The position numbers and the translations under genes are program-made. From contig JBDTRY010000003.1 of NCBI GenBank assembly GCA_039931435.1, positions 1 through 60,093 of the forward strand: DNA of 60,093 bases, written 5' to 3'. Positions 4,595 through 13,686 of the stretch are shown one piece after another. The DNA is from Acidobacteriota bacterium. Lineage in GTDB: Bacteria; Acidobacteriota; Thermoanaerobaculia; Gp7-AA8. The stretch's first letter is position 1, and every line of letters begins with the position of its first letter. The notes below the pieces were generated by a model. The model did no database searches and had not been told where the DNA came from. It saw only the letters and a list, made by a program, of their open reading frames with translations.

Positions 4595-6535
4595 TCAGGG
4601 GTGCCAGCGGAGGTACACGCCGTAGCGGCTGGCATCGAACTTTCCGTATGACGGAGAGGGTTCGTCATATTTGTCGCGATCCCATTCGACCGCGACCCCT
4701 GTCTTCGACTTGAAGTCGTACGTGAGGCGAAGGCGATAGCGGTCCATGTCGAAGGGAGTCGTTCCGCTATTCTCGAATCGTCCCAGGCTGGTGTCGAGTG
4801 AGAACGGGCCGCGCAGGAAGCTCACGCCGCCTTCCCGCGCTTTGCCGTTTTCGCTATGAACCGACTCGTCGATGCTGAAGTTTTCCGGATGCCGGAAGCT
4901 GATGTTGCTGTCAGCTCGGAACTGCGAGAGGGATCCCCGCAGCCGCAACCAGGCCCTCGGCGCCACTTCAACGTCGCCGCTATATTGGCGGATTCGCGCA
5001 TCGTAACCGGCCTCGGGCCGGTCGTTGCTTTGATTGGTGCGCTCCGCGGTGAGGCCGGCGCGGAAGAAGTCCTTCGGCGAACTCCACGCTCCGCGAACGC
5101 GGACGCGATCACGATCGAGAAAATCAGTCCGAAAGACGGGATTGTCAGCATTGTCGGTGCGCCAGGCCGCGCCGAGCATGAGGCCGGACTGTCTAAACGT
5201 GCCGCTGACATCGAACGTATGCACGCGTCGGTCGAACTGGCCTTCCTGAGCGCCCGGCACAACGATTTCCGAGAGGTCCGGCGAAACCTTGACGTCCTGT
5301 TTCGATTCCCGATATTCACCACGAAGAGCAAAGGGTCCCAGGGCCCGTGCGGACACTGAGGCGTTGAGGACATCCTCGTTGCGGTCCAGGGAGCTGGACG
5401 CCTTCAGGATGGTCTCGAGGTCGCGCCGGTCTACCCCTCCGAAGGTGATGCTCTGAAGAAAAATCGTGGTGATGAGCGCTGAGCCGTCCAGCTCGCGATG
5501 CTCTTTCTGAAAACCAGCGGACACGTCGACGTTCGGATATACGGTGATTTCCGCCCGCCCGCCTCCGCGCCAGGTGGTGTTTTTTGCCGAGGAGCTGCCT
5601 TGCTCAGAGATCCCCGTGAAGAAGCGGCTGATGGGAAATGAAATGAACGTCCCGGCCGCGTTCTCGCTCTCGCTGCCGTCGGAGTCAGCGGCGAAGCGGA
5701 CGTAGTTGCCGATCAGGCGGATGCGCGTCAGTGGCTGGCCCGTGATGTAGAAATTCGTAAAGGGTGTGTCGACGTCGGTGCGGTCGGTGCGGCTGATGGT
5801 CTGGGCGCTGACGGGTTGGTCGAGGATGGATCCGGGATTGTTGCCGGCTCCCGCTCCGGAAGCGAGCGAGAGTGAATCAGTTCCACGAAAACTTCGCCAG
5901 CCCTGCGTCAGCTGACCCTGGACAGATCCGAAGTGAAATGATGCGCCGGCCCGGAGCTCGCGGTCCCGTTCCTTCAGATTGTTACTGAGGCGGAACTCGT
6001 CCTGCCCGAGGTTGTACGTTGTTGTTCCGGGACCATGGTTGTCGTTCCATGTGTAGCCGACGAACGGTACGATGGCTCGGTCCGGCAGCAGTTCCAGATC
6101 GACGTCGAGCATTCTGCGCGTGCGTTCGTAGGTGTGCTGTCCCGGGACGATACCCTCACCAAGCAGGGGATTTGCGAATCCGGGCAACGCACTGAATGCG
6201 TTTGTGGAGCGATACCCTACGCGCAGGTGATAGCGGCGGCTCTTTTCTGCTTCGATGCGAAGCGAGCCGGCCGGACCGGCTCCAAGGTCGCTGACATCGA
6301 CGCGGAAGCGGTCCATGAACGTGGTCCTGCCACTGAAATCGGACGTGGCCAGAGTGAAGTTGCGGATGAGCAGGCCGTCCCGCTCGTTGATCTGGGTTCG
6401 GTACATGTCCTCACTGCCTTTGAGATCGAGCCAGCGGTAGCCGATCTCGAGATCGAACGGCACCGTTTGCGCCTGGGCAGTGAAGGCGACCGCAACGACC
6501 GTTGCAGACAGCAATGTGGTGAGGATTCGTCTCAT
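4595..6535 (-). CDS. MtrB/PioB-like outer-membrane beta-barrel porin
   Basis: Signal peptide, alternating beta-strand pattern, C-terminal YGVYLRWHP, directly downstream of an MtrA-type decaheme. Confidence 0.8.
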   Translation of the reverse strand: MRRILTTLLSATVVAVAFTAQAQTVPFDLEIGYRWLDLKGSEDMYRTQINERDGLLIRNFTLATSDFSGRTTFMDRFRVDVSDLGAGPAGSLRIEAEKSRRYHLRVGYRSTNAFSALPGFANPLLGEGIVPGQHTYERTRRMLDVDLELLPDRAIVPFVGYTWNDNHGPGTTTYNLGQDEFRLSNNLKERDRELRAGASFHFGSVQGQLTQGWRSFRGTDSLSLASGAGAGNNPGSILDQPVSAQTISRTDRTDVDTPFTNFYITGQPLTRIRLIGNYVRFAADSDGSESENAAGTFISFPISRFFTGISEQGSSSAKNTTWRGGGRAEITVYPNVDVSAGFQKEHRELDGSALITTIFLQSITFGGVDRRDLETILKASSSLDRNEDVLNASVSARALGPFALRGEYRESKQDVKVSPDLSEIVVPGAQEGQFDRRVHTFDVSGTFRQSGLMLGAAWRTDNADNPVFRTDFLDRDRVRVRGAWSSPKDFFRAGLTAERTNQSNDRPEAGYDARIRQYSGDVEVAPRAWLRLRGSLSQFRADSNISFRHPENFSIDESVHSENGKAREGGVSFLRGPFSLDTSLGRFENSGTTPFDMDRYRLRLTYDFKSKTGVAVEWDRDKYDEPSPSYGKFDASRYGVYLRWHP

Positions 6536-6546
6536 CTCAGCCTCGC

Positions 6547-7557
6547 CTACTTCAGCAGTTGCGGATCGCGGTTGGAGCCGTGGACGGCAACGTGACAGGT
6601 CGTGCAGTTCTGAAAACGCGGGCTGCTGAGGTTATGAAACGACGGCGGTTGGGACCCCAGCGTATCGCCACCGATGGGCGAATGACATTCGATGCAGAGC
6701 TGCGCGACCGTAGCTCGTTTGAGCTGTTTCGGGTTCGAGGAACCGTGCGGCTCATGGCAGGTCATGCAGTCCCCGGCGGCCAGCGCGCCGTGCTGGAAAA
6801 CAAAGGGGCCACGCTTATCGGCATGGCAGGACAGACAGGGCAGCTCACCGGCACGGGTCCTGCGCAGGCTTTCTCTCCCCGGCATTCCGTGCGGCTCGTG
6901 GCACGATGAGCATTCCATTCCGCCCCGCCCGATCCGGTGAGCGAAGGGCTTGTTGCGCATCGAAGCTACCTGGGTCATGTGGCATGTGTCGCAGAGGGCC
7001 ATCTCCCGTTTTACCAGCAGATGCGGCGAGTGCGGGTCCGCAGCGTGAATGGCGTGGCAGGTCAGGCAATTGACCGCCGTTGAATTCGCGTGCACGCCCG
7101 CGTGACGGGAGACCTGGTCGGTGCTGACGTCGTGACAGGACAGGCAGGTTTTGTTCGCGCCCGTCACTCCCACCGGTTTGTAGATCTTGTCCGTTTCGCC
7201 ACCGCTCTCGATATGCGCTTGGCCGTCACCGTGACAGGTCTCACAGACCGCATTGGGAATCTCGCCGTCTTTCACCTTGCCATGACCATGCGGGTTCGAG
7301 CCGAACGTGGCCATGGCGTCATGGCACTGCGTGCAGGCAGGGAGCGCTTCCGCTTCACCAGCAGAAGCCGGCGTCGCTTCGGGAGTCGCCTCCGGCGAAG
7401 CCTCGGGCGAGGGCTGTTCGGCGGGCGCGGCCGTCGTGGTTTGCGGCTGTTCCGTGGGAGTGGGAGCGGGAGTTGTGGATTGCGGACCGCTGGCGCACAG
7501 CCCCGGCACGGCGAGACAGAGCACGAACGCGAGGGGCCCGATCCAACGGTGTCTCAT
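6547..7557 (-). CDS. MtrA/DmsE-family periplasmic decaheme cytochrome c
   Basis: 10 CxxCH counted; KRGPFVFQH and CHxxHGSN motifs. Start reassigned to ATG 7557 (MRHRWIG, RBS AGGAG). Pro/Thr/Glu-rich linker follows the signal peptide. Confidence 0.92.
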   Translation of the reverse strand: MRHRWIGPLAFVLCLAVPGLCASGPQSTTPAPTPTEQPQTTTAAPAEQPSPEASPEATPEATPASAGEAEALPACTQCHDAMATFGSNPHGHGKVKDGEIPNAVCETCHGDGQAHIESGGETDKIYKPVGVTGANKTCLSCHDVSTDQVSRHAGVHANSTAVNCLTCHAIHAADPHSPHLLVKREMALCDTCHMTQVASMRNKPFAHRIGRGGMECSSCHEPHGMPGRESLRRTRAGELPCLSCHADKRGPFVFQHGALAAGDCMTCHEPHGSSNPKQLKRATVAQLCIECHSPIGGDTLGSQPPSFHNLSSPRFQNCTTCHVAVHGSNRDPQLLK

Positions 7558-7575
7558 TTTTACTCCTGGACGCTG

Positions 7576-7599
7576 TGGGGGGACCTTGCGGTCCCCCCA
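7576..7599 (-). promoter_or_regulatory. Intra-operon stem-loop between mtrC-like and mtrA-like genes
   Basis: Perfect 10-bp stem TGGGGGGACC/GGTCCCCCCA, GCAA tetraloop on the transcribed strand, no U-tract. Confidence 0.55.
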
Positions 7600-7610
7600 T
7601 GCGCTCGACT

Positions 7611-9752
7611 CTATCGGGCGTGAACGCGCTCCACCGACCAGTCCTTGCCGGTGCCGTGGCAGGTTGCACAGGCTTCGGCGGGAGTGGTGCCTCCGGGGAA
7701 GGTGACCGTATTCAGGAACGCATGTGCGGCCGCATCTCTGTTGTCGTGGCAGCCCAGACAGGAAGCTGTGGCCGGACCCTGCGGACTGAAGTAGTCGCGA
7801 AGGGTGGTGACGGATCCGATCCTGGTGGGAAGAGGCAGCGTGTACGAAGTGCCGACGTGGCATTTCGCGCAATTGCGGAGATCACCAGGGAAGCGCACTT
7901 CGTTGAAGTTGTTCCGGCTGCCGCCGAACCCATAAATGGTGAAGTCCTGCGTCAGTTCCTCACCTTTATGAATCTTGTGGATCATCCGGTTGAAGGAGAT
8001 GGACTCGGCCGGTCCCTCCGTCGCCGGCCGCTGGGACTGATCGCCCTCGGTCGGATTGTGGCAGATGACACACTCCTCGGTGTTCATTCGCTGACCACCG
8101 TGAACTGCCAGCCGGTTGTGGCACTGGTTGCACTGTGCTGTCGAGACCACCATGCGGCGTGGGTCCACCGCCCCGGTCACGGCTACGTACTTGATGGGAT
8201 TGAAGGCCGCTTCCCGGACGGCAATGTCGGCCTTGCCGTCGGCGCGTTTCAGCGAGACGTTGCGGTAGATGTCGGCGCTGACCGTCCAGGTTCCACTGGC
8301 GTCGGCCGGTAGCGCATTGTTGAAGGTGTAGGAGGTGGTCCCTGTGGCCGCGTCGAAGACGGCTTTTGCCAGCGCGCTCTCGCGGAAGTACTTCGAGTAG
8401 CTTGAGGTCGGTCCACCAACGATGGGCGCGAACGTGGAGAGCTTCGTGCCATCGACCGCCGTTCCATCACCGTTCGTGATTTTGAACACGACCGTAGGCT
8501 TCTTGCCGGCGGCCATGTCGCTCACGCTGACGATCGTGGCCGAGATTCCCTTGAGCTGTTTCGATTTTTCAGGAATCGTATGCGCACCCTTGATGGAAGC
8601 GTCGAACTCCTGGCCGCTGTCAGGAATGTGGCAGGAGGCGCAGGCGCTGTCGTTCAACTGCGGGCCGCCCGGGTGATTTATCCCGGTGACCCAATCGATG
8701 TCGTCGTGGCACGAGCCGCACGCGGCGCGGCTGGGATAGGTGTACCAGGCGTTCGATTGCGCTCCCTTATTGTTCGGATCCGAGCCTTCGTGGCAGGTCG
8801 CGCAATTACGGATGTCCTGAGGGAAGGCCACGGTCGAGAAATCCACAACCGTCTGATTGAAGCCGATGATCTGGTAGGGAGTGCCGGCGATTACGCTGGG
8901 GAGGTTCTCGCCGCGGTGGATCTTGTGGGCCATGACCTTCATGTCCACTGTGTTGCCCGTATCAGGATCGGTGGTCTGCGGCTGATGGCAAAGCGCGCAC
9001 AACTTCACGTCCTGCCGGGCGCCGCCATGAGCGGAAAGCGGATCGTGGCAGCTGTTGCAGGTCGTGGCGGTGCGCATCTTGTCCCATGTCTCAGTGACCG
9101 GGGTGCCGTCCGGACGGAAGTCATATTCGACGTTGGCGACGTAGCTCTTTTTCAGTTCTTCGTCGATCCCCGGGACTGCGTTGAGCGCGCGTGTGGCGTA
9201 GATGCCGAGCGTATGGGTCTTCGTCACATCGAAGCCCGCGGGGAGTGCCGTTTTGAATGTGTATTTGACGTGCCCGGTCTCCAGGTCCATAAAGGTTCCC
9301 CCCGCGTCTGTGCCGGCCTGCATTGCGGACACGCCGGGATGGGGGCTGGACGGCGGGGTCGTCTGCGTCCGTACGGTGTACGACGTGTATTGCCGCGTCG
9401 CAGGGTCGTACCACGCCAGGATGAAGCTGATGGAGATCGCTCCCGGAGTGATCTTGCCGAGGCGGTCGAGCGGCTGATCGAGGGAATCCGTGATCGTGAG
9501 ATCGACCACCGGTCTGCGGTCGGAGCCGATCACGACGGAATTGACCTTGATCTTCAAACCCGGGCGGATGAATTCAATGGACTCCGGTGACAGGAATGAC
9601 TCGATCTCCGTTGAGGCAAACCCAGTCCTGTTCGGGTCCGACGGAGGCGCAGCCCCACGTCCCCGGCCCGTGGTCTCAGTGGCCAGCAGCGTGCTCGCGA
9701 ACAGCGCGGCCATCGATACCACGAGAACGGCGCGGTTCATCCCTGACTTCAT
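7611..9752 (-). CDS. OmcA/MtrC-family decaheme cytochrome c
   Basis: 10 CxxCH in two blocks of five, each preceded by a heme-free domain; LSAHGG/LAVHGG and MxHKIH motifs; start ATG 9752 after GGAGG. Confidence 0.9.
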   Translation of the reverse strand: MKSGMNRAVLVVSMAALFASTLLATETTGRGRGAAPPSDPNRTGFASTEIESFLSPESIEFIRPGLKIKVNSVVIGSDRRPVVDLTITDSLDQPLDRLGKITPGAISISFILAWYDPATRQYTSYTVRTQTTPPSSPHPGVSAMQAGTDAGGTFMDLETGHVKYTFKTALPAGFDVTKTHTLGIYATRALNAVPGIDEELKKSYVANVEYDFRPDGTPVTETWDKMRTATTCNSCHDPLSAHGGARQDVKLCALCHQPQTTDPDTGNTVDMKVMAHKIHRGENLPSVIAGTPYQIIGFNQTVVDFSTVAFPQDIRNCATCHEGSDPNNKGAQSNAWYTYPSRAACGSCHDDIDWVTGINHPGGPQLNDSACASCHIPDSGQEFDASIKGAHTIPEKSKQLKGISATIVSVSDMAAGKKPTVVFKITNGDGTAVDGTKLSTFAPIVGGPTSSYSKYFRESALAKAVFDAATGTTSYTFNNALPADASGTWTVSADIYRNVSLKRADGKADIAVREAAFNPIKYVAVTGAVDPRRMVVSTAQCNQCHNRLAVHGGQRMNTEECVICHNPTEGDQSQRPATEGPAESISFNRMIHKIHKGEELTQDFTIYGFGGSRNNFNEVRFPGDLRNCAKCHVGTSYTLPLPTRIGSVTTLRDYFSPQGPATASCLGCHDNRDAAAHAFLNTVTFPGGTTPAEACATCHGTGKDWSVERVHAR

Positions 9753-9854
9753 TCGAGCCTCCATAAACGGCCTCTGGCTTCCATTTTCACTTTTGGAGCG
9801 TTTGGAGCGTATTGTATCCGAAGTGGCCCGTCGCTGCCCGCCAACACGCACACA

Positions 9855-9870
9855 TGTGACTGCCGTCACT
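9855..9870. promoter_or_regulatory. CRP/FNR-family-like site upstream of the mtrC-like gene
   Basis: TGTGA-N6-TCACT; TACAAT -10-like hexamer on the minus strand at 9811-9816. Confidence 0.4.
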
Positions 9871-10030
9871 TCAGCAGGTGAGTGACAACAACTCTGGCTC
9901 ACCAGGAATGGCGATATATTAGAAAGCCTGTCTGGCTCGCAGTCGCACGGTTCTTGTTCTCATTTTCTCATTCCCATCCCGGCCGTTTCTGCTCCGCTTT
10001 GTCAAAACGACTAAAGAAAGGCTTTACCTC

Positions 10031-10682: not shown

Positions 10683-12164
10683 ATGAACGACGCCCCACGG
10701 AAACCGAGTCTGTCCCGGAACGTCATCAGTGCCATCGGCGCATTGATCGTGTTCGTCGCTCTGATGAACACGATCTTCCTGATCTATATAGACAGCCGGC
10801 AGACTCATGGAAGCCCGTACCTGGGTATTCTGGCCTGGATCGTCGGTCCCGCCATTCTGTCTTTCGGACTCATTGTCTACATGGCCGGACTGCTGATCGA
10901 GAGACGCCGCCGTCGTATGCGGGCGCCGGATGACATTCCGCAATACCCGGCTATCGACCTGAACGTCCATCGAACACGAATGATCGTGGCCAGTATCTTT
11001 GCCGGCGTCATCCTCTTCGTCACCGCCAGCGTCATCGGCAGTTTTCAGGCCTTTCACTACACCGAATCGGACGAATTCTGCGGAACGGCATGTCATCAGC
11101 CGATGCATCCTGAGAACATCGCTCATCAGATCTCACCACACGCCAGGGTCGCTTGCGTTGCCTGTCACGTGGGAGGGGGAGCGGAGTGGTACGTCCGTTC
11201 AAAAATCAACGGCACCCATCAGCTCATGGGTGTGATCACAGGCAACTACAAACGTCCCATCGCCACGCCGATCAACAATCTCCGGCCGGCGCGGGACACC
11301 TGCGAGCAGTGTCACTGGCCGGAGAAAAACTTCGGAGATCAACTGAAGGTCTTCAGCCACTACCAGTACGACGAGCAGAGCACGCCAACGGAAGTGCGTC
11401 TCCTGATCCACGTTGGAGGCGGTAGCCCCGCCACGGGTGTGGCCCCCGGCATTCACTGGCACATGAATCTCGCAAACAAAATCGACTATGTCGCTGTGGA
11501 TCCTCAGCGTCAGGACATTCCATGGGTTAGGATGACCGACCGCAACGGCAAAGTCACGGATTACGTTCGAGAGGATTCGAAGGTGACGCCGGCGCAGATT
11601 GCAAACGCGCGGCAGATGGACTGTTTGGACTGCCACAGCCGTCCGGCCCATAACTACCTCTCACCAGACCGTGCCGTGGACCGGGCTCTGCTCACGGGAT
11701 CGATCGATCGCTCGCTGCCCTACGTCAAGCAGCAGGCCGTGAACATTCTCTCGAAGAACTATGGATCGACAGCGCAGGCAGTGAAGACCATCGGTAGGGA
11801 CTTCCCCGCCTACTACAGCAAGACCTACCCGGCCGTTTACGCTGCCAGGCGAGCTTCCGTGGACCACTCCATGAAAAGCCTTCAACGGATCTTCCAGTTC
11901 ACACGCTTCCCTGAGATGCGCGTCGACTGGCGGACACACCGGAACAACCTCGGTCACATGTACTCGCTCGGTTGTTTTCGCTGCCACGACGACCAGCACG
12001 TAAGCAAGGACGGCAGGCGAATCAGCAAAGAATGCTCGATCTGCCACGAAGTGCTGAGCGCTCCTGAAGGGAAAACGGCTGAGTTCCAGCATCCCGTGGA
12101 CCTGGGAGACCTCCGCGACATGGTCTGCACCGATTGCCACACCGGCGGAGATATGACCCAGTAG
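10683..12164 (+). CDS. ImcH-like NapC/NirT-family membrane multiheme cytochrome c (putative quinol dehydrogenase)
   Basis: Three N-terminal TM helices, YTESDEFCGTACH (CX3CH) plus six CxxCH = 7 hemes, 493 aa. Confidence 0.82.
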   Translation: MNDAPRKPSLSRNVISAIGALIVFVALMNTIFLIYIDSRQTHGSPYLGILAWIVGPAILSFGLIVYMAGLLIERRRRRMRAPDDIPQYPAIDLNVHRTRMIVASIFAGVILFVTASVIGSFQAFHYTESDEFCGTACHQPMHPENIAHQISPHARVACVACHVGGGAEWYVRSKINGTHQLMGVITGNYKRPIATPINNLRPARDTCEQCHWPEKNFGDQLKVFSHYQYDEQSTPTEVRLLIHVGGGSPATGVAPGIHWHMNLANKIDYVAVDPQRQDIPWVRMTDRNGKVTDYVREDSKVTPAQIANARQMDCLDCHSRPAHNYLSPDRAVDRALLTGSIDRSLPYVKQQAVNILSKNYGSTAQAVKTIGRDFPAYYSKTYPAVYAARRASVDHSMKSLQRIFQFTRFPEMRVDWRTHRNNLGHMYSLGCFRCHDDQHVSKDGRRISKECSICHEVLSAPEGKTAEFQHPVDLGDLRDMVCTDCHTGGDMTQ

Positions 12165-12189
12165 AAATAACCGCTGGGAAGCGCGGCCT

Positions 12190-12430
12190 TCAGATCTGTC
12201 TGATCTTCAGCGCCAGGGCCACCAGCGCTGCCAGGATCACCCAAAGCGAGATGAGGAGGCCGCGCCGGCGATAGGCCAGCTCGTCCAGTGAATGCTGGCC
12301 GCCCTCGAGCGCTGTCTGCGCATGAAGGAGCGCTTCCTTGCGTTTGTCGGCGAAGGCGCCGGCACTCGAGAAGCTGTGCACCAGCGTCTCGATCTGATTG
12401 TCGATGGCGATGTCCAGTTCCGCTCGTGCT
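12190..12430 (-). pseudogene. C-terminal remnant of a membrane-anchored multiheme cytochrome-type protein
   Basis: ARAELDIAIDNQIETLVHSF...ELAYRRRGLLISLWVILAALVALALKIRQI resembles the C-terminal anchor of cytochrome c3-family proteins; in-frame TAA upstream. Confidence 0.45.
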
Positions 12431-12492
12431 TAGGAACTGAACGGCTCCTCAGACCCCGCTACTTTGCGAGCCGGTTGAAGACCACTTCTGAT

Positions 12493-13008
12493 CTACGGCT
12501 CGCGACCCTGGTGCACCGGCAATCCGGCAGACTGCCATGATGCGAACCCTCCCAGAAGGGCGCCCGAGTCCATTCCACCGCTGGTAATGATGAGCGCCGC
12601 ACGGGCGCTCGATTCTTCGGCCGGTCACGTGCAGTAGGTAATGATCGGTTTACCCCGCGGAAGGTATGGCAGCTCGCCCTGAATGTACGAAAGCGGGATG
12701 TGCATTGCGCCGGGGATATGCGCCGCCACGTACGAATCGATGTCACGCACGTCGATAGCCCTGATCTCCCCCCGCTCCAATTTGTCCCTGAACGCCTTCA
12801 GCGGCATACGAGCAACGGAATCCAGCGAGGGGGCGGAAAACGGGGCCGGTGCGCTGGAGAACGGTGTGCCGGTCATGACGGGCGCGTTCGCGGCCACCGC
12901 ACTCCCGGCAGCCGGAGCTGGATTGGAAGCGCGCGTGGCAGCCCATCCGATGATCACCCCGACGACTGCCCCGGCGGCCACATAGGCGGTGATCTCCTGC
13001 CCTTTCAT
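12493..13008 (-). CDS. Membrane-anchored rhodanese-like protein, probable selenoprotein (CxU; UGA at 12625-12627)
   Basis: IDVR...HIPGA...YCT-TGA-PAEESSARAALIITSGGMDSGALLGGFASWQSAGLPVHQGREP-TAG; the rhodanese C-terminal signature lies in frame after the TGA. Confidence 0.85.
12592..12610 (-). promoter_or_regulatory. Candidate bacterial SECIS hairpin
   Basis: GAGCGCC-CGUGC-GGCGCUC, a 7-bp stem starting 14 nt after the UGA, with GU in the apical loop. Confidence 0.65.
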
Positions 13009-13070
13009 GCTTCCTCCTCCACGGCGGTTAACGACCCGGAGGCGACGCTCCCGTGACCAGCTTCCGTCAT

Positions 13071-13100
13071 GAAAAACGGCAGCCCGGAGACGGGCTGCCG
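13071..13100 (-). terminator. Rho-independent terminator of the cytochrome c gene
   Basis: CGGCAGCCCG-TCTC-CGGGCTGCCG-TTTTT on the minus strand. Confidence 0.75.
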
Positions 13101-13128
13101 AAACATCAAACTCTGAAATGATGGCTAC

Positions 13129-13434
13129 TTACTTCTTCAGGCTGCGCACGAAGGCGATGACAGCCTCCATATCCTGGGCGGAAAGTTTGGAGGGTTTCAT
13201 CTTTCCTTTACCTTCGGCGAGGATTTTCGTCATCTCCACGTTGGTGAGATTCTGAACCTCCGGCGTGCCGAGATCCTTCAGCTTGAGATTCTTCCCGATC
13301 GTCGTCTGTCCGCTTCCGTCCGCCCCGTGACAGGCCGCGCATTTCGCCTTGTAAATGGCCGCGCCATCGGCGAATGCGGCCACGGGCAGAGCCAGCGCCA
13401 GCAGCACCGCACAGGTCAAAGTTTTCTTCTTCAT
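13129..13434 (-). CDS. Monoheme class I cytochrome c (paralog of 4196-4516)
   Basis: MKKKTL signal peptide, CAACH, GKGKM; shares CHGADGxGQTTIGK with the first copy; RBS GAGGAG. Confidence 0.92.
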   Translation of the reverse strand: MKKKTLTCAVLLALALPVAAFADGAAIYKAKCAACHGADGSGQTTIGKNLKLKDLGTPEVQNLTNVEMTKILAEGKGKMKPSKLSAQDMEAVIAFVRSLKK

Positions 13435-13518
13435 CAATGACTCCTCTTTCGTTTTATATTCAAACATTCTTGCCCCACACTGTATTTCGTCGGCAGGTGA
13501 TTAAACACGGCAGATTCA

Positions 13519-13686
13519 CTAGTGGCGTGTATTGGATGAATGGGTACCAGATGACGCCGGAATCGGCGACGTGAGCTAGGCGCGCCGACGCAAGCATAGC
13601 GGCTCCTATGCTGAGGAGGCGCAACAACGCTCACGGCGTCGAGACCAAGTCAAGGTGGTACCCATTTGTCCAATACACGCCACTAC
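13519..13686. mobile_element. MITE-like element, copy 1
   Basis: Terminal inverted repeats TAGTGGCGTGTATTGGA...TCCAATACACGCCACTA; near-identical inverted copy at 28523-28689; no credible ORF. Confidence 0.8.

Follow-up and report, generated by a model that had tools for sequence, protein, structure and literature searches.

The window considered here, by which is meant the whole 60,093-nucleotide stretch from contig JBDTRY010000003.1 of assembly GCA_039931435.1 (an Acidobacteriota bacterium of the Thermoanaerobaculia), carries on its reverse strand a gene for a small rhodanese-like protein that appears to contain selenocysteine (Sec). The open reading frame (ORF) called at this locus, 13008..12625, encodes 127 amino acids and ends in ITYCT followed by TGA. 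When the TGA is read through, 43 further codons remain open before a TAG is reached, which gives a protein of 171 amino acids ending in LLGGFASWQSAGLPVHQGREP, with the active-site motif Y-C-T-U-P-A-E-E-S. The match to the Pfam rhodanese domain PF00581 spans the TGA (E-value 5.7e-13; 49.6 bits against a cut-off of 22.2). An initial annotation, made from the DNA alone, had described an ORF that stops exactly at the active-site loop and a frame that stays open for 43 codons and completes the rhodanese domain; the first is present as described and the second is confirmed, the Pfam match crossing the TGA. Its proposal of a hidden rhodanese selenoprotein of the CxU type, with a hairpin resembling a selenocysteine insertion sequence (SECIS), is supported by the TGA or Cys found at this position in homologues, by the hairpin itself, and by the presence of selA, selB and selD in the genome. 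The gene is read here, with a probability of roughly 0.8, as encoding a small membrane-anchored rhodanese-type selenoprotein in which the in-frame TGA is decoded as Sec; that Sec is inserted at UGA codon 128 is, taken by itself, very highly probable. The positions of all features are given in Table 1.

The read-through protein was searched for in 61 genomes, its own and those of 60 relatives, and a match is present in 53. The alignment used throughout has 31 rows, made up of the top match from each of 29 related genomes, the window gene and one tandem copy, and so represents the best 30 loci of the 53 genomes with a match. The column that holds the TGA of the window gene has TGA in 25 of these rows, which come from 24 genomes spread over many genera; in the remaining six it has TGT or TGC. 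One of the TGA rows (L045) is from a genome marked as unpublished (G023), and the result is independent of this row. The motif across the rows is Y-C-[T/A/S]-[U/C]-P/T/Q, with YC[TAS]U in all 25 Sec rows. Conservation continues beyond the TGA, where G153, G154 and W158 never vary and A150 and L151 hardly do. Also invariant in all 31 rows are D86, R88, H97, Y125, C126 and the Sec/Cys128 column, and Glu131 in the active-site loop is nearly invariant. The expectation that homologues would have Cys in place of the UGA is borne out by the six Cys rows, the other 25 having the TGA together with the hairpin. This pattern, in which an in-frame TGA stands opposite Cys in related genes, is the usual hallmark of selenoproteins and excludes a nonsense mutation peculiar to the window gene.

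When the 31 domains are placed in a maximum-likelihood tree, six changes are needed to account for the Cys label, at least two of which are forced by well-supported branches, and the Cys forms are scattered inside Sec-dominated clades. The tree is unrooted, and the simplest reading of these sequences would be that the ancestor had Sec and that Cys took its place repeatedly, the direction of change being presumed. In genome G032 (contig C293, locus L051, 907-1410 and 1414-1884) a Sec form, YCAU, and a Cys form, YCAC, are in tandem on the same strand, only a few bases apart; these may be a selenium-replete and selenium-poor pair. Together, the Cys forms within a Sec-dominated tree and the genome with tandem Sec and Cys copies provide a natural series for studies of Sec-to-Cys replacement. 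Genome G037 (contig C8, locus L073) has two equal-scoring Sec-rhodanese copies, 91237-91716 (+) and 100119-100598 (-), inverted and approximately 8.4 kb apart, which suggests an inverted duplication.

It had been raised as a check that reads might show TGC or TGT instead of TGA, and the TGA is kept in the contigs of three sequencing runs. Those of runs X1 and X2, from one study that is possibly that of the source sample, show no difference from the window across the TGA. The contig of run X6, from another study and at approximately 95% identity, has 18 differences in 398 nt and retains the TGA, while that of run X4 stops short of it. No RNA run holding this stretch of the gene was present among the listed runs.

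The hairpin 3' of the UGA, GAGCGCC-CGUGC-GGCGCUC, has a perfect stem of 7 bp and is part of the minimum-energy fold. As first described, its loop CGUGC begins 21 nt past the UGA; the stem begins at 14 nt, and this spacing presumably agrees with the published bacterial SECIS model. Perfect 7-bp hairpins of the same position class occur after 696 of the 131318 TGA triplets in the genome (0.53%) and after 1161 of 200000 randomly chosen positions (0.58%). Against this background, a single copy of the hairpin is unlikely by chance yet suggestive only, and it is conservation in the relatives that settles the question. Indeed, the hairpin is kept in the same columns in all 25 TGA rows, with 7 of 7 stem pairs in 18 of them and 6 of 7 in the other 7, and in nine TGA rows an eighth pair is added, with a loop of GUG or GUU. 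The six Cys rows have only 2, 4, 5, 4, 5 and 6 of the same seven pairs. Conservation at third codon positions is 0.76-1.0 inside the hairpin versus 0.40-0.80 at the flanking third positions. Within the stem, five pairs are invariant and the only change in one other is from G-C to G-U; shuffling gives values equal to those observed. The base directly after the UGA is C in 22 of the 25 TGA rows, which is a weak context for termination. A G in the small apical loop is a named feature of bacterial SECIS elements in the excerpted text of the Sargasso Sea selenoproteome paper (PMC1088965); the loop CGUGC has such a G and, in the wording of that text, the stem-loop is just 3' of the UGA.

The machinery for Sec is largely identifiable in the genome, for which the assembly is 82% complete and in 414 contigs. 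Profile scores are above the cut-offs for selA (487.1 bits), selB (338.4 bits, over nearly the full model) and selD (369.9 bits). The selD gene (G000:C32:1511-2452, reverse strand) has an in-frame TGA in its N-terminal GGUACK motif and is itself that of a selenoprotein, which would mean that the organism needs Sec decoding for its selenophosphate synthetase. A tRNA-Sec gene is present in 17 of 20 relatives, at 67-77 bits (one of these genomes, G042, being unpublished). The tRNA-Sec genes of G001 (L064) and G005 (L066), which belong to different genera of one family, differ at 3 of 94 positions.

The AlphaFold2 model made from the 31-row alignment (mean predicted local distance difference test, pLDDT, 88.2; predicted template modelling score, pTM, 0.66) has an N-terminal helix, a low-confidence Pro/Ala-rich linker and a rhodanese domain. 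The domain is well folded over approximately residues 61-165, the ten-residue pLDDT blocks from 61 to 160 being at 96-98. The best Foldseek matches in the PDB are single-domain rhodaneses, including 3tp9 (E-value 1.4e-9), BH2092 (3nhv), YgaP and Alr3790. Pairwise phmmer alignments to YgaP, BH2092 and 3tp9 match Cys126 with the canonical catalytic residue (Cys63 of YgaP, counted along the alignment), and in those to YgaP and BH2092 no gap interrupts the active-site loop or what follows it. On these alignments Cys126 is probably the canonical catalytic Cys, with Sec128 two residues into the loop that cradles the persulfide. An active-site loop two residues longer than usual, as a profile alignment to 3tp9 had indicated, was dropped, since the YgaP and BH2092 alignments are ungapped.

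The membrane anchor proposed in the initial annotation has its counterpart in all 31 rows, each of which has an N-terminal hydrophobic segment (best 15-residue Kyte-Doolittle mean 1.75-3.25; 2.31 for the window protein). In one clade of 10 rows, five have a genuine lipobox (e.g. LVAC, LAGC, LAAC), and the other five have short signal-like segments with small residues before Q, four ending in A and one in H-A. The remaining 21 rows, including that of the window protein, have a longer helix, mostly with a K/R-rich stretch ahead of it, which by the positive-inside rule would place the domain outside. A match to the lipobox pattern in L029, a member of this anchor clade, was not counted because the Cys sits within the hydrophobic helix. 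From this comparison the domain is likely to be extracytoplasmic, and probably periplasmic.

Several observations weigh against the selenoprotein reading and its details. The most direct is that selC, the gene for tRNA-Sec, was not found in the 82%-complete assembly with Rfam, ARAGORN or blastn. The four genes selA, selB, selC and selD were named as a check at the outset; selA, selB and a Sec-type selD are present, and it is selC that is not accounted for. An Rfam tRNA-Sec match at 48.4 bits, just above the cut-off, is in fact tRNA-Ser(UGA), and the next matches are likewise tRNA-Ser. ARAGORN found 36 tRNAs in this genome, none of them for Sec, with tRNA-Trp, tRNA-Tyr and tRNA-Ile missing as well, and blastn of the tRNA-Sec genes of two relatives against the assembly found nothing above 18 nt. 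The missing selC is attributed to the incomplete assembly, and the gap remains. With regard to the hairpin, the 81-nt stretch folds with an unremarkable energy (z = 0.11 against shuffles), and this measure was dropped as evidence, being uninformative in G+C-rich DNA. Compensatory covariation is absent from the 31-row alignment, where no pair has changed on both sides, and the support for the hairpin therefore rests on its conservation and its co-occurrence with the TGA. That conservation is in part at the level of the protein, since the hairpin overlaps a conserved peptide, S-S-A-R/G-A-A/V-L (SSARAAL in the window). In the contig of run X6 there is a C>T variant at 12597 that breaks stem pair C23-G31 and changes an Ala to Thr. 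As to the active site, a profile alignment to 6mxv sets Sec128, not Cys126, on the catalytic Cys, and because of this conflict the roles within the Cys126/Sec128 pair are assigned tentatively. The N-terminus of the window protein itself is too poorly charged to fix its topology, so that the extracytoplasmic placing of the domain is drawn from the homologues.

Rhodanese-like selenoproteins with a CxU motif have been catalogued previously. They are 'form 3' in a table of one review (PMC13188914), where they are credited to Zhang and Gladyshev 2005, and 'COG0607 form 2 (CxU)' in the excerpted text of an earlier review (PMC9312934), in which selenoprotein subfamilies are set by domain and Sec motif. 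By this rule of domain and CxU motif, the window protein is a divergent and usually mis-annotated member of the catalogued kind. A literature search for experimental work on CxU rhodaneses found catalogues only, the supplementary tables of which were outside the search and may list this branch, and no literature was found that joins the Thermoanaerobaculia with selenocysteine.

The closest curated model is NF041203 (rhodanese_LYCAU), which is the best NCBIfam match for the window protein and for all nine of the homologues tested, and which likewise has a single rhodanese domain with Sec two residues past a Cys that is preceded by Y. However, the window protein scores 49.2 bits and the nine homologues 56.8-84.1 bits against a cut-off of 115, and none of the 61 genomes has a protein above the cut-off, the best being 99.7 bits. 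The match begins at residue 61, leaving the anchor or signal and the Pro/Ala linker outside the 126-position model, and the motif of the model is YCAU, its U column being taken from the model's name, whereas YCTU is the most frequent here. The other models are more distant, with no more than 36.2 bits in the homologues for PspE (NF007627, TIGR02981; cut-offs 102-126) and 30.9 bits in the window protein for GlpE (NF001195; cut-off 102). Membership of the NF041203, GlpE and PspE equivalogs was rejected, as all of the scores are below the cut-offs.

Among the related structures, E. coli YgaP (PDB 2moi, 5hbl) is also a membrane-anchored single-domain rhodanese, and aligns ungapped from Cys63 to the C-terminal GLPV, but it has neither Sec nor a second loop Cys and matches at only 37 bits; in YgaP the membrane helices are at the C-terminus, and the rhodanese domain lies in the cytoplasm. 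BH2092 of Bacillus halodurans (PDB 3nhv, 3o3w; a structural genomics target of unknown function) is one of the best fold matches, with ITYC..PA in common and an ungapped loop. It has W-G in place of T-U and a Cys five residues past the first, and is not a selenoprotein. PspE, Sud and ExtH are similar in that they are rhodanese domains outside the cytoplasm that handle sulfur, E. coli PspE and Wolinella Sud both being extracytoplasmic. None of the three is described as having Sec in the texts consulted, ExtH and Sud being compared by description only. ExtH is a lipoprotein of 49 kDa (PMC5877670) from a cluster that includes a selenoprotein cytochrome (PMC6148476), according to the excerpted parts of these papers. 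TsoB (NF045694), a Sec-bearing rhodanese joined to a DsbD-like membrane thiol-disulfide electron transporter, provides a precedent for a membrane-fed Sec-rhodanese, but it scores 25-32 bits in three of the nine homologues against a cut-off of 805, and its motif is UxxxxU, with two Sec, as listed in the review table (PMC13188914).

From these features a mechanism may be proposed in which SelB, on the conserved hairpin, would deliver Sec-tRNA to UGA128. The protein would be inserted by its N-terminal helix, with the Pro/Ala-rich linker and the rhodanese domain beyond it outside the cytoplasm. Cys126 would cooperate with Sec128, one of the two holding sulfane sulfur, selenium or a mixed disulfide and the partner residue attacking it to form an internal selenenylsulfide, an 11-membered ring, that an external reductant would reopen. 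The protein would then handle persulfides, polysulfides, selenite or disulfides by redox chemistry rather than act as a plain thiosulfate:cyanide sulfurtransferase. Such a Cys-Sec redox couple is given slightly less than an even chance. An exported rhodanese with a built-in Cys-Sec pair would be a tractable case for what Sec adds to the chemistry of sulfur transfer.

The main functional rival is that the selenoprotein is an ordinary thiosulfate:cyanide sulfurtransferase, with one residue as sole nucleophile and no Cys-Sec redox cycle. The rhodanese fold with the canonical Cys in place would be consistent with this, as would the catalogued Sec-rhodaneses that have no paired Cys in the motif (UxxS and UxxG in the table of PMC13188914). 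However, Cys126 and the Sec/Cys128 position are both invariant across the alignment, and the scores against the GlpE and PspE models fall far short of the cut-offs. The nearly invariant Glu131 also argues against it, an acidic loop residue being unusual in thiosulfate-type sulfurtransferases, in which basic or polar residues normally bind the anionic substrate. An ordinary sulfurtransferase is on balance considered rather unlikely.

Table 1. Features of the rhodanese-like gene and of its surroundings in the window
Feature	Position	Strand	Basis or remark
Probable rhodanese-like selenoprotein coding sequence	12493..13008	-	171 codons with UGA as Sec, plus TAG 12495..12493
Shine-Dalgarno-like GGAGGAGG	13013..13020	-	4 nt between its end and ATG 13008..13006; direct reading
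N-terminal hydrophobic helix, residues 3-26 (membrane anchor or uncleaved signal)	12931..13002	-	AlphaFold2 model
Rhodanese homology domain, residues 72-160	12529..12795	-	Pfam match PF00581
Cys126 codon TGC (probable canonical rhodanese catalytic cysteine)	12631..12633	-	alignment to YgaP Cys63
In-frame UGA, predicted Sec128 of the CxU motif	12625..12627	-	same column TGA in 25/31 homologue rows
SECIS-like hairpin	12592..12610	-	stems 12610..12604 and 12598..12592, loop CGUGC 12603..12599
Terminator-like hairpin	13077..13100	-	10 pairs (9 G-C), then TTTTTC; consensus scan only
Putative gene, 63-codon ORF with GTG start and hydrophobic C-terminal stretch	12190-12381	-	just downstream of the rhodanese gene; no family match
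Terminator-like hairpin	12188-12169		after the 63-codon ORF
Class I cytochrome c	13129-13467		haem-copper oxidase subunits on the same (window 3') side
NapC/NirT-like cytochrome	10683-12164		
OmcA/MtrC-family decahaem	7611-9902	-	TIGR03507, 508.6 bits
DmsE/MtrA-family decahaem	6547-7872	-	TIGR03508, 208.9 bits
646-residue ORF in the expected porin position	4595-6535	-	no Pfam or NCBIfam match

The genes around the rhodanese gene led the initial annotation to place it within an island for extracellular electron transfer (EET). This label is fair, given the MtrC/MtrA-like, NapC/NirT-like and class I cytochromes and the haem-copper oxidase subunits; the genes from 4595 to 9902 on the reverse strand are an mtrCAB-like set. 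The further suggestion that the protein couples to the cytochrome network is unsupported, as it has no conserved neighbour and a terminator-like hairpin separates it from the cytochrome c gene. As this hairpin divides the rhodanese gene from the cytochrome c gene upstream of it, the rhodanese gene is probably its own transcription unit. A consensus scan found no sigma-70-like promoter in 12100-13600.

On analogy with ExtH of Geobacter, the selenoprotein could be tied to the neighbouring EET cytochromes, passing sulfur or selenium species or electrons. Its gene has a NapC/NirT-like cytochrome on one side and a class I cytochrome c on the other, with the MtrC- and MtrA-like decahaems close by, and 4 of 23 loci, that of the window among them, have a class I cytochrome c within approximately 6 kb, which is above the expectation from the 11 domain matches in its own genome. 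The rhodanese-like lipoprotein ExtH is clustered with a porin-like protein and the selenoprotein cytochrome ExtKL in the excerpted accounts (PMC6148476, PMC13510729). However, no family of neighbours is common to more than 4 of the 23 loci within approximately 6 kb, no conserved neighbour is present within 1.5 kb in the 29 other loci, and where there is a cytochrome c nearby the gene order and strand vary between loci. The closest orthologue, in G009 (65% identity; sister in the tree with support 100/99), has BON-domain, patatin, DUF2442 and DUF2971 neighbours and no Mtr genes. With the terminator-like hairpin also standing between the two genes, the tie to EET is improbable and the cytochrome link weak. 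The selenoprotein gene looks to be a stand-alone gene, and its position beside the Mtr-type cytochromes incidental. It is similarly doubtful that the exported CxU rhodaneses of these Thermoanaerobaculia genomes might be a separate family, missed by all present models, serving as a periplasmic selenenylsulfide relay (e.g. a persulfide/polysulfide or selenite reductase), which in some, including this genome, would receive electrons from respiratory or EET c-type cytochromes.

In the public databases this branch is for the most part cut short. Among 116 database relatives, 81 end in [A/T]YCT, having been cut at the TGA, 28 are full-length with CxC, one has W at the site and six are without the motif. 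They have names such as 'rhodanese-like domain-containing protein [Thermoanaerobaculia bacterium]' and '[Acidobacteria bacterium]'. Because 81 of the 116 are cut at the UGA and the curated CxU model misses the branch, selenoprotein counts for this soil/rhizosphere lineage are too low. A profile from the 31-row alignment, together with the near-invariant hairpin, would recover the mis-annotated members.

That the TGA is a true stop, leaving either a pseudogene made by nonsense mutation or a functional 127-residue protein, is how gene callers treat it in these relatives and in the window's own database entry of 127 amino acids, and the missing selC would be consistent with this. It is nonetheless very improbable, as the TGA occupies a single column in 24 genomes, the 43 codons after it are open and conserved, and a 127-residue product would lose the last strand and helices of the rhodanese fold, besides which there is Cys at the site in six rows and the hairpin accompanies the TGA. 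Read-through without Sec, by a near-cognate tRNA (Trp, Cys or Arg) or with TGA as a sense codon, could draw on the missing selC and on the one database relative with W at the site (P0109, probably through another genetic code in gene calling), but is scarcely credible when TGA ends more long ORFs than any other stop codon (by a rough count over the first 60 contigs, 875 of 1249), which argues against genome-wide reassignment, when the aligned residue in relatives is Cys and the hairpin is conserved only after the TGA forms, and when selA, selB and a Sec-type selD are present here and tRNA-Sec in the relatives.

A second Sec-rhodanese is present in the same genome, at G000:C32:25874-26188 with the TGA at C32:26069 (locus L053, 898-1860), within an ORF of 320 residues. 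This protein has a multi-pass membrane N-terminal part, putatively DedA-like by its look, and a C-terminal rhodanese with LYCTUPNEASAARVA, which is the best NF041203 match in the genome at 72.1 bits, below the cut-off. There may be a bulged hairpin with the loop CGUGU after its UGA. Fusions with one TGA and of like length, approximately 320-335 residues, recur in the relatives.

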